64,000 nt of DNA, taken from Acidobacteriota bacterium. Its GTDB lineage: Bacteria > Acidobacteriota > UBA890 > WLXD01. A program made the translations under genes and the position numbers. Every line of letters begins with the position of its first letter. The stretch's first letter is position 1. Where the stretch lies: positions 128,001-192,000 of the forward strand of contig CAXWPH010000012.1 in the NCBI GenBank assembly GCA_963666055.2, given 5' to 3'. Positions 59,934 to 63,533 of this stretch are shown in pieces. The notes beneath the pieces are model-generated. The model saw only the letters and a list, made by a program, of their open reading frames with translations. It made no database searches and was not told the origin of the DNA.

Positions 59934-60251
59934 GTTGGCCTACCTCAGGTTCGCCGCGATCAAGATTATGCCCAGCCAGATCACCGCGAGGATGGAGGAG
60001 ACTAGCACTGCATGGTTGCAGCGTCCCGTCTCCGGTCAGCCCCAGGCAGCTTGAATCATGAACCCGGATTCCACCTTAGCTGTGACCAAAACCTGTCCAA
60101 TGGATGGGGTCCACCTCTAACGCTTCGTCGCTCGGCGCCTCTTTAAGCTCCTGGAGTCGACGGCGATGACCGCTTGACAGTCATAGAAGCATCAATTCAA
60201 CCAATCTGGCCGCGCAGTGGAATTCCCTGAATCCACCTAAGCCTTTTGTTA

Positions 60252-61376
60252 TCAACAGTGCCGGGGCTGGGACTCGAACCCAGATGACCTAAGGCCAGCG
60301 GATTTTAAGTCCGCCGCGTCTGCCAATTCCGCCACCCCGGCAATACCTACAACCCGCGTCTTATCAATGCTTTGAGAACTATTGGAGAACTTGTCTACGC
60401 CCGTTTTATCTGCTTGGGTAGCGCTCTGGGTAGCACTATCTAAGCGGTCAGCCGCGAGAGCGGTTTGCTCTTCTCCCAAATGCACATAGCGCTTGGTCAT
60501 CCATCCCGTCCGCTGCCGGAGGAAGTTCTGGATCTCGGCCTCGGTTGCGCCCGCCGCACCGAGCCGCGTGGCGAATCCGTGGCGCAGGTCGTGCAGCCTC
60601 AGGCCTGAAAGGCCAGCCCGTTTGAGCGCGCGGCGAAAAGCTCGGTACAACCTGTCGTAATCGATGGGACCGCTGCCATCCGCATTCGGGAACAACCACT
60701 CGGAGGTCTTAGGCAGCGACTCGAAGTGCTCACGCAGGGTTGATCGCAGCCGCTTTGTCATCGCGAGTCCCCCCTCTTTACCGCGCTTCGCAGCCGGAGT
60801 CGTGATCAACCCTTTGCCGTTGCGCCAGTCGAAGTTTAGGTGCTCTCTGCGCGTCCTCAGCACCTCGGAGCCGATTCGCATGCCGGAGTCGTAACAGACC
60901 GTCAGGATCACTGCGAGAAACGGCAAGAGGTCATCCCGAGAATGAGCCAGGATCAGGTCGAACTCCGCCTCTGTTGGGACGGACCAGGCGCTGGTGTTCT
61001 CGGGGTACCGCCTGATTCGGCGGACTGGGTTGATCTTGATCCGATCATCTTCTTCGAGGCACGACATGAAATCCGAAAGGGTCGCCAGGTATCGATTCAC
61101 GGTGGGGCCACCTCGCTTGCGCTCGGAGGCACCGCCCTTCCCCGCGATTAGGTCCTTCTTACGTTGTCGGACCGTGAACTTGGTGATGCGGTCGACGCGA
61201 AGGCCGGGGAGCAGGTTCCCAATAACCGTGAGGTGATTCCGTTTGTCGCCCAGCGTGCTCTTGGCGTTGGGTACCTCCTTCTCGCGGAAACACGGCGAGC
61301 GAACCCGAAGCCCCCCGTATTGCTTCTCCGCAACCCACGGACTTCCCGGGCGATCTGTCCGACGAAAGACGCCCAT
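60252..61376 (-). CDS. int: Tyrosine recombinase/integrase
   Basis: TVNRYLATLS, SGMR..E, K, LHDLRHGFAT, MT.RY.H; the reading frame continues through the tRNA. Confidence 0.93.
   Translation of the reverse strand: MGVFRRTDRPGSPWVAEKQYGGLRVRSPCFREKEVPNAKSTLGDKRNHLTVIGNLLPGLRVDRITKFTVRQRKKDLIAGKGGASERKRGGPTVNRYLATLSDFMSCLEEDDRIKINPVRRIRRYPENTSAWSVPTEAEFDLILAHSRDDLLPFLAVILTVCYDSGMRIGSEVLRTRREHLNFDWRNGKGLITTPAAKRGKEGGLAMTKRLRSTLREHFESLPKTSEWLFPNADGSGPIDYDRLYRAFRRALKRAGLSGLRLHDLRHGFATRLGAAGATEAEIQNFLRQRTGWMTKRYVHLGEEQTALAADRLDSATQSATQADKTGVDKFSNSSQSIDKTRVVGIAGVAELADAADLKSAGLRSSGFESQPRHC
60259..60341 (-). tRNA. tRNA-Leu (anticodon TAA), CCA not encoded
   Basis: GCCGGGG acceptor stem, GGAATTGGCAGAC D-arm, GCGGA-CTTAAAA-TCCGC anticodon arm, long variable arm, CTGGG-TTCGAGT-CCCAG T-arm. 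Confidence 0.96.
60362..60434. promoter_or_regulatory. att-arm-like signals inside int
   Basis: IHF consensus TATCAATGCTTTG (60362-60374); direct repeats GAGAACT x2 (60374, 60385) and TGGGTAGC x2 (60415, 60427). Confidence 0.6.
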
Positions 61377-61579
61377 CAGCTTTGCTCGCAGATTGAGCGT
61401 TCCACCTCGCTCAATCGAAAGCGCCGTGTACGTGGGCCGAGTGCATGGCTCGGGATCTTACCCTTGATCGCCCAGCGGTAGACAGTGGCCGGGTTAACGC
61501 CGAGGAACCTTGCGATGACCGTCACTTTCACAAACGGTTCCCGCTCGGTGTTGATGCGTAGGCGCTCCGCCTCGCTCAC
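61376..61579 (-). CDS. Excisionase/AlpA-like HTH protein
   Basis: IA.FLGV...TVYRW...GKIP....G...RF..SEV; TGATG overlap with int. Confidence 0.88.
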   Translation of the reverse strand: MSEAERLRINTEREPFVKVTVIARFLGVNPATVYRWAIKGKIPSHALGPRTRRFRLSEVERSICEQS

Positions 61580-61772
61580 TCAGCCACCTCTGCCCGAGCG
61601 CTGGCAGCACGTAGGCTCCCGGTGGTCTCCTGGTTAGGGTGAGCGAGGGCCAGGTCAAGCTCGTGTACGTTGCTCCAAACACGCTTGTGTGGGCTGGTCG
61701 AACTGAGACCGGTGCACGACCAGAGTGGCCAACGGCTCGTAGGCTGCTCTCGAATCCAAGGGCCCGAAAGAT

Positions 61773-61879
61773 GCCGCCCGTGTCGCCCGTATCGCCCAGA
61801 CTCGTGCTGCGCGGGATGACAACGAGCCACGAAGCCCTCCCCAGAAGCGCGTTTGGGCGGCATGGGCGTTATGGGCGTG
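61773..61879. repeat. Inverted 3+3 array of 9-bp-period CGCCC repeats
   Basis: CGCCC at 61775, 61784, 61793; GGGCG at 61855, 61864, 61873. Confidence 0.7.
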
Positions 61880-62229
61880 GAGTTACCTCACTTTGGTGGA
61901 CACCTGAACGCTTGGAGTTTGGGTACTCGTAGTAGCAGTGAAGTGGGAACTCGTGGGAGCCGCATAGCGCTCGGTCGACCGTCGCCTCCGGATTCGTGAT
62001 CTCCGGCGTGCCGAGCATCGCTATCCTCGTGCCGAGTCGATCCTGCTCGGCCATCAGCCGCGCGTGCTGCGCGTCTTTCGCTCGCCAGAGGGTGTTCCTA
62101 CGCTGGGCGCTGATCACCGCCACCCCAGCGAGGCAATCGTGCTACGGGGACGTCGGGCGGGTCGCTGGGGGCAACGCTGGTTGCCGTCGACCGGTCGGCC
62201 TGTCTCCGCGGCCCGCCGGAGCAGAGCCC

Positions 62230-63018
62230 ATGCTTTCACGATCGATCCGAGTCGCCCTGGCGCTCGTGTTCGTCTTCTCGGCTGCTGCGGCGTTCGCACA
62301 GCAGGGCGGGCGCGGCGCCGCCAACCTCCCGAACCCCATGACCGCCTTCGTCGACTTCACCGTCGATCAGCTCATTGTCCGCGGCGGCAGGCTGTGCCCG
62401 ACTCCGAACAAGGTGAAGGCGGTGTTCCTCGGCGGTGACCCGCTGACGGTCATCTCTAGCCGCGAACGGCTGATGATTCTCGCCTTCGACCGCAGGCTCA
62501 TCGAGTTCGGCGTCTCGCACCTGCTGTCGATCCGCTGCGATGGCGGCCAGGAAGAGCAGTTCGAGGTCTATATCGAGCGGGCCGGGAAGCAGGGGCCGAC
62601 GGGTGACACCGGTGCAACGGGGCCGGCAGGTCCACAGGGTGTGCCGGGCGGACCCGGTCCCGCCGGGCCTCCGGGTCCGGCAGGTCTACAGGGTGTGCCG
62701 GGCGGACCCGGTCCCGGAGGCAGCCTGACCCTCGAGACCGCCCAGGTAACCACGAACATCGCCGGTTTGAACGGTACGACTGCCACGGGCGGCACGGTCG
62801 GCGCCAGCAGCACCAACACCCTGTTGTGTCCCACACCGACTCGTCGGGTGATCGGGGGCGGTGTGCTGATCGATAACGCGGCCATCGGACAAAACGTCGA
62901 CTTGCAGGCAAGCTACCCGAGCGCCGCCAACGCCTGGACCGGGACGGTGACAAACAAGGCCACTGCCAACGTCGAAGGAGGTAGCTATACCGTTTACATC
63001 ATCTGCGCGGACGCCTAG
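62230..63018 (+). CDS. Exported collagen-like (Gly-X-Y) protein
   Basis: Signal peptide (AFA/QQ), about 15 Gly-X-Y triplets, C-terminal CP......GGG...SYP....W.........ICA domain. Confidence 0.85.
62623..62716 (+). repeat. ~40-bp near-identical duplication (54-bp period) in the collagen segment
   Basis: CCGGCAGGTC(C/T)ACAGGGTGTGCCGGGCGGACCCGGTCCCG twice. Confidence 0.85.
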
Positions 63019-63533
63019 GCTCGGCGGCCTCCTTCATGGCTTCTCTACAAACCAGTGTGACAGGGGGCTTGCCCGGCGGCGGCTAACCATGCCGACGTTC
63101 CGCAGTTGCGCCGCGGCGCCCCTCACCCGACCCTCGCGAGGTTGCGCTACATACTCGGCGTGGTGTTCAACATCCTTGCATTGGGGCTACTCCTCCCCTA
63201 TCCGGCACCAGACTTGTCCTCAAGCTGCACCCGAGTCCCGAGCCCGGCAGCGGTCCGCTCTCGGGCAGATCGTGTACCAAAGGTAAACGACAGAAGCGCC
63301 GTGGCGCCGCTCAGCTGATCCGCGAACTGACGCCTTGTAACCCAGCGGAGCGCAGCCGGCTTTAACAACGTCGCGTCGGGGGCGAGCTCCAATAACCTCT
63401 TGTCAGCACCGATCCTATGAGTTACGAAAGTACCCAAACCCTTGGGCAAGGCTAACCTGGGCTGCCTTTCGAGTCAGACCAACCAAGGAGGCCTGCCGAA
63501 ATCCCACTTCGAACGCTAGTAGGGGAAGCTGCC

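Follow-up and report, generated by a model that had tools for sequence, protein, structure and literature searches.

The window is a 64,000-nt stretch of DNA from genome G000 (other G numbers denote the genomes of relatives, L numbers loci, P numbers integrase (Int) proteins, and C7 and C12 contigs). Its minus strand carries a 374-aa reading frame, int (60252-61376), which matches the PF00589 profile with an E-value of 4e-18. The catalytic residues R, K, H, R, and Y are invariant across 80 homologues and give the frame the R-K-H-R-(H/W)-Y set of a tyrosine integrase, with Gln at the H/W position throughout the subfamily of the window Int (LRQRT). Past the catalytic Tyr297, the frame stays open for 77 residues as far as its TGA stop codon, which lies 5 nt 3' of the discriminator of a tRNA-Leu(TAA) gene (60258-60341) that shares the strand of int and is read in frame. 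This count agrees with an earlier note on this DNA, which had described about 75 open codons after the Tyr, running across direct repeats, an IHF consensus, and the whole tRNA. The question raised there of whether this is the only UAA-Leu tRNA can be answered for the 60 tRNA genes called in G000, among which it is unique. The att core corresponds to int codons 346-359, and every catalytic residue is located upstream of it. The features of the locus are as follows.

61376..61579, minus strand: xis-like HTH gene of 67 aa, the stop codon of which overlaps the ATG of int (TGATG); ORF call, HTH_17 E = 1.7e-10.
60252..61376, minus strand: tyrosine integrase ORF with R167-K197-H262-R265-Y297, open across the arm and the tRNA; invariant columns (P0002 numbering minus 46).
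61278..61283, minus strand: junction of an in-frame 46-codon deletion, with Glu-Lys at either end of the lost segment; alignment to relatives.
60415..60437, minus strand: two arm-type direct repeats of the AGTGCTACCCA type; the pair is also found behind the C7 half, in G002, in G003, and at both att ends of G005.
60362..60374, plus strand: perfect IHF consensus, the TTG end of which reads CAA (Gln) on the int strand and TAA (Int stop) in relatives; motif scan and arm comparison.
60354..60356, minus strand: second variable position, with CGG in the window, TGA in G002 and G003, CGG in G012, and CGA in G004; arm comparison.
60303..60343, minus strand: att core of 41 bp, in which two leader bases precede the tRNA 5' half, which ends together with the anticodon loop; exact match at G000:C7:45767-45807.
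60258..60341, minus strand: tRNA-Leu(UAA), single copy, CCA not encoded, stop-free in frame 0 only; tRNA call.
60215..60257, minus strand: second arm remnant 3' of the tRNA, IHF-like and A+T-rich, likely derived from an unrelated 3'-type element; sequence, with similar arms in G003 and G004.
61877..61969, no strand assigned: dispersed genome repeat, likely the upstream limit of the xis-int remnant; repeat search.

Two sets of direct repeats had been pointed out in the arm. The TGGGTAGC pair (60415-60425 and 60427-60437) is kept in relatives, whereas the GAGAACT pair (60371-60380 and 60382-60391) is absent from the arms of G002, G003, and L027 and is probably due to chance. G003, which belongs to the same genus as G000 and shares its contig with L107, is labelled Acidobacteriota.

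Read contigs from three of four sequencing runs, representing two studies, are identical to the window over 60314-62633, and the fourth run gave matching fragments; the whole tRNA is bridged by no single read contig. Because the read contigs of the two studies match letter for letter, neither the read-through nor the 46-residue deletion is an assembly error. The loss of a stop codon through a sequencing or assembly error might be suspected in a metagenome-assembled genome with duplicated segments, but it is hardly credible in view of these identical contigs and of homologues that read through in the same frame. The window int contains TTA at codons 312 and 357, one of which lies within the anticodon loop of the crossed tRNA itself. 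Therefore, read-through needs the very tRNA that int crosses.

Alignment to P0002, P0003, and P0004 shows that 46 residues are missing from the window Int. In the P0002 model (mean pLDDT 86.5; helices 33-49, 52-56, and 64-78), they correspond to the helix of the arm-binding domain and the first core-binding helix, and the arm-binding and core-binding domains of the window Int are thus predicted not to be intact. Only about 1.5 kb of DNA from the element seems to be left before the dispersed repeat. The att halves are located on different contigs, the ends of which do not overlap, and rnpB is found 129 kb upstream, on the element side of the window int. The att ends of the window copy do not bracket one contiguous element, whereas those of G005 do. 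The window copy carries the 46-aa deletion, has host genes (rnpB) on its element side, and cannot excise cleanly; it is probably a dead remnant.

A deleted and grounded copy would also fit an origin of the open frame by drift in an already inactive element, as A+T pairs of the arm eroded to G+C in a host genome of 64% GC. The residue changes between the G002 arm and P0003/P0005, as deduced from the proteins, are those of T>C or A>G transitions. However, the full-length P0002 and P0003 also read through, and the IHF site and arm spacing of the window are perfect and free of indels. We therefore regard a stop loss after the death of the element as improbable.

Three different dispersed non-coding repeats, each with many copies in G000 or its relatives, occur at 60022-60123, 61877-61969, and 63344-63450 of the window, and the first has a very high depth in the metagenome runs. 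The plus strand encodes a likely secreted protein with a short collagen repeat (62228-63018; PF01391), the homologues of which are found at unrelated places in G002, G003, and G004; another collagen-repeat gene is present in the C7 remnant described below.

The earlier note placed the element 5' of the tRNA and proposed that a second, tRNA-derived att end exists. An exact 41-bp copy of the 5' part of the tRNA, up to the end of the anticodon loop, is located at G000:C7:45767-45807, and the AGTGCTACCCA repeat pair recurs about 140 bp beyond it; the junction of this half is based on the assembly and one 30-letter joint in read contigs. Both proposals are borne out by this copy, and the upstream position is further supported by G005, which holds a complete 16.4-kb element with an Int of the same family. 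That element is bounded by a 59-bp repeat, which includes a TACAAT box (-10) and the tRNA-Leu 5' half. It had been left undecided whether attP carries the 5' half or all of the tRNA; the 5' half stands, as the C7 copy runs from nt 1 of the tRNA to the anticodon loop. As judged from their sequences, the C7 and window halves are attL and attR of an element that supplies its own tRNA 5' half. Because the sequence 5' of the C7 half holds a C-terminal remnant of another integrase with different arms in place of a host promoter, the insertions were tandem.

As another candidate, an attL after the tRNA-Cys of a Gly-Cys-Leu operon was ruled out, since a protein gene follows the Cys in G000, G011, and G012. 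The C7 remnant behind the attL half (L021, G000:C7:36000-45767) contains, besides an IS21-like istAB at a distance of 200 bp from the arm, genes for a second integrase and a DnaB-N/AAA_25 helicase. The C7/C10, C14/C15, and C6/C13 contigs of G000 show duplicated tRNA clusters and an 8-kb contig overlap, which suggest a strain mixture or assembly overlap.

A second att copy that matches the tRNA 5' half as far as the anticodon loop and leads into an element arm is present not only at C7 but also at three of 12 upstream-type loci: G005 (Leu, 59 bp), G260 (Lys, 40 bp), and L070 (Ser, 40 bp). At the other nine loci, no partner half was found in the fetched part of the DNA, several contigs being short, and a search of G002, G003, and G004 with an 18-nt pattern and one mismatch found no 5'-half partner. 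Among 121 distinct Int C-termini, 29 have a tRNA within 450 nt, with Int upstream on the same strand in 15 and convergent in 14. Because 15 of these 29 tRNA-adjacent Ints are upstream on the tRNA strand, the 5' geometry is common in this Int family. In a review, this 5' geometry is described as seldom encountered among bacteria (PMC8371274).

The tRNA-Leu(UAA) is sandwiched by remnants of the 5' and 3' types, with IHF-like 3' arms in the window (60215-60257), G003 (L002:2100-2170), and G004 (L013:1430-1500). The tRNA-Leu(CAA) at G000:C15:521264 is likewise located between a 5'-type and a 3'-type remnant. G005 has two complete tRNA-Leu(CAA) genes (C2:31171 and C5:450321), which differ in their variable arms, with the second of them located behind one of the Ints of this family.

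At a threshold of 90%, the close Ints form seven clusters, including that of the window. The frame enters the tRNA in four of them (P0001, P0002, P0003, and P0005/P0013/P0014), whereas the other three (the P0004 group, P0007, and P0008/P0015) stop at ...KRS, about 30 nt before the tRNA. The case made in the earlier note would have been refuted by close homologues ending before the att arm. This outcome was not observed, yet read-through is polymorphic, with three of the six clusters besides that of the window reading through and three stopping before the tRNA. In every family- and order-level relative examined, Int ends 42-90 nt short of the tRNA. Because P0002 and P0003 are full-length, read-through also occurs in apparently intact integrases. 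In a tree of 13 rows, the read-through Ints form two groups, P0001/P0002 and P0003/P0005/P0014 (supports 98/99 and 97/98), and the hypothesis of one origin was not rejected (p-AU 0.555). If there was a single origin, the frame has been kept open and in phase across 25-40% Int divergence, which could reflect selection. The conservation of phase between int and tRNA in stop lineages is not convincing (six of 15 in frame, including the window).

The search for further close loci gave one hit in a metagenome scan of 80 (L027), one in the genome scan (L107), and none in the viral scan. From the distant representatives, 139 of 147 gave a tail, with a median of 29 aa, and credible tRNA-derived tails were observed in two. 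The tail of P0135 resembles the 5' part of a tRNA-Lys in the sense orientation, and that of P0157 is tRNA-derived and antisense; both belong to distant integrases.

The IHF consensus WATCAANNNNTTR has a single match in the 64 kb (60362-60374), with 0.17 expected by chance and one found in 17 of 100 shuffles. In the window, G002, G003, and G012, it begins at a distance of exactly 33 nt from the tRNA, and the arms of the window, G002, and G003 are aligned without gaps. The TTR end of the site thus sits 11 codons before the tRNA, the one stop-free frame of which begins at nt 1. On the int strand, this end reads TAA in G002, G003, and G012 and CAA in the window. In G003 and L027, Int does end at this TAA, which G002 and G012 have in frame at -33. 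Gln at -11 and Asp at -8 are found in all four read-through clusters, and no further position among the 11 is kept; P0002, P0003, P0005, P0013, and P0014 are known as proteins, and their CAA is deduced from the Gln. These two residues are the ones dictated by the IHF motif. The second possible stop is TGA in G002 and G003 and CGG or CGA in G012 and G004, which are arms without read-through.

An unrelated convergent Int pair at a tRNA-Met presents the same alternative: the TAA is the stop codon in L159, and L158 has CAA and reads 22 nt into the tRNA in the antisense direction. The IHF site of this pair (G219 and G327) lies 17 nt from the end of the tRNA-Met. The 49 codons from the Tyr to the tRNA are open in 6% of base shuffles of the window and the last 11 codons in 39% (range 24-43%). 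Because shuffles leave the last 11 codons open in 39% of cases, the open frame alone is unremarkable. The frequency of read-through, in three of the six other clusters and four of seven in total, fits the 24-43% chance of 11 open codons. The choice between stop and read-through appears to depend mainly on one base, which is neutral for the IHF consensus. In the literature searched, which covered few subscription journals, no paper described an overlap between an integrase stop codon and an IHF site.

The P0002 model predicts that the tail is disordered from the start of the tRNA part (pLDDT below 50 from residue 394), and its sequence is unconserved among the read-through clusters. P0003 shifts frame within the variable arm. 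The bodies of P0013 and P0014 are as in P0005, but they leave the tRNA after ADLKSA for unrelated sequence, which most likely belongs to the arm of another element in tandem. If the window int were joined to the C7 half, 10 residues would follow ADLK, compared with 16 in the window. The earlier suggestion that the integration state could change the Int tail is supported by these predicted lengths and by the natural exchange between P0013/P0014 and P0005. State-dependent tails appear to exist, and there is no sign that their sequence matters.

The two tails might instead give integrases of different activity. The IntP of Myxococcus phage Mx8 resembles the window Int in that its tyrosine integrase gene contains att at the 3' end and its C-terminus reportedly depends on the integration state; there, a 112-aa tail is exchanged for one of 13 aa, and the product is described as less active (PMC4701971). 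The att core of the window likewise lies inside the ORF. In contrast to the lost 112-aa tail of Mx8 and the reported activity drop (PMC4701971), the window element would exchange only 10 and 16 residues, which lie some 60 residues past the catalytic Tyr and are unconserved, predicted to be disordered, and absent in the stop lineages. We consider a switch of the Mx8 kind very improbable.

The earlier note had seen no obvious promoter for the tRNA. A consensus promoter scan of the window likewise gave no sites, and with a promoter matrix neither the window arm, which was equalled by 38 of 200 shuffles, nor the stop-type arms of G002, G003, and G004 gave a significant promoter. The TAA of the stop-type arms might conceivably serve as the -10 box as well. 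The matrix, which was trained on 29 of 57 host tRNA upstream regions and told only two of 13 arms from shuffles, detected an element-borne promoter in G012 (a CAA element; none of 200 shuffles was as good) and a host site in G005. No terminator is predicted on the minus strand between int and the tRNA, and co-transcription is therefore plausible. The 5' part of int is gone in G002 and G003, and G002, G003, and G004 each hold one copy of this tRNA. G004 has no int, about 30 nt of arm, and a divergent gene 150 bp upstream. Because int is missing and the upstream gene is divergent in G004, this tRNA probably need not depend on the xis-int message. UUA accounts for 0.9% of the Leu codons in the host, yet it occurs in 721 of 2134 long ORFs; therefore, the rebuilt tRNA must stay expressed.

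These observations bear on a built-in regulatory switch, which the earlier note had proposed. In the integrated state, the xis-int message would continue into the tRNA, RNase P would cut at the 5' end of the tRNA, and the resulting stop-less int mRNA would lead tmRNA to tag Int for proteolysis. We regard this course of events as unlikely. Its counterpart on the excised circle, where Int would end 10 residues after the core because the full tRNA is missing, so that read-through lineages would keep Int low in lysogens, seems doubtful to the same degree. Equally unlikely is the corresponding claim that read-through alleles are kept since tRNA maturation by RNase P turns the int message into a non-stop one as long as, and only as long as, the element is integrated, with tmRNA destroying Int in lysogens and the element controlling the host's sole UUA decoder. 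The shared strand, the lack of a predicted terminator, the presence of rnpB and tmRNA in G000, the different tail on the excised side, and the occurrence of read-through in full-length Ints of two groups are all consistent with such retro-regulation. Moreover, in archaeal elements of the pTN3 type, the integrase promoter reportedly drives the rebuilt tRNA (PMC8371274).

However, stops ahead of the tRNA are found in three of the six other close clusters and in every family- and order-level relative examined. The base that toggles is neutral for the IHF site, and the same toggle also occurs in the convergent pair, whose int strand is no substrate for RNase P. A -10 box (G005) or a full promoter (G012) is supplied by related elements themselves, and G004 probably expresses the tRNA in the absence of int. 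Together with the tail, which is unconserved and predicted to be disordered, and the deletion in the window copy, these points speak against the proposed switch. Among the titles in the literature searched, nothing concerned control of int by tRNA processing.

Williams reportedly described, in 2002, bacterial elements (class IB) that give rise to a duplicate of a tRNA gene's 5' half. The window element presumably belongs to this type. It shares with such elements a crossover in the anticodon loop, a position upstream of the rebuilt tRNA, and a tRNA severed from its own promoter. The window family differs in that the int frame can extend over the core and the whole tRNA and in that the geometry is frequent (15 of 29).

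A further parallel concerns the suicidal integrases of pTN3/TKV4 of Thermococcales, in which a 41-bp att corresponding to the 5' half of a tRNA-Leu lies inside int, and the rebuilt tRNA is separated from its promoter (PMC5495485, PMC8371274). These elements are archaeal, and their integration disrupts int, whereas the whole catalytic domain stays upstream in the window and only the short tail changes. The window Int is not split into N and catalytic C halves of the pTN3/SSV1 type. The window element further differs from pTN3/TKV4 in its lambda-type arm repeats, IHF site, and xis and in the polymorphism of att-in-int (four of seven close clusters).

On balance, we consider it fairly probable that the read-through is neutral, a by-product of the att arm that arises from one base of the IHF site in a dead element of the 5'-half-duplicating kind. 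After insertion at the anticodon loop of the tRNA-Leu(UAA), such an element would have restored the gene by means of a 5' half that it carried itself, and the window copy would be the attR end of this decayed tyrosine-integrase element. In this family, the 3' end of int overlaps the att arm, and the position of the IHF site 33 nt before the tRNA sets its register with the sole stop-free frame of the tRNA. The TTA end of the site on the int strand serves as the Int stop in relatives. TTG, the other base permitted by the consensus, would turn the stop into Gln and presumably keep IHF binding. With the next possible stop position varying freely, translation would reach just past the tRNA. The added tail is predicted to be unstructured and would be exchanged upon core recombination, and its sequence shows no sign of selection. 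A promoter in or beside the arm, the site of which was not located, probably drives the tRNA.

If the non-stop mechanism described above were true, it would be a new way of tying the integrase level to the integration state. The analysis identifies a bacterial integrase family with frequent replacement of the tRNA 5' half, a geometry that has been called rare, and island finders that seek only 3' fragments miss such ends. It also provides a testable rule for integrase ORFs entering tRNA genes, namely that the stop codon lies in the IHF site and that the consensus permits a non-stop base. The comparison of arms suggests that one base of the IHF site would switch integrases between a normal end and read-through into the tRNA.
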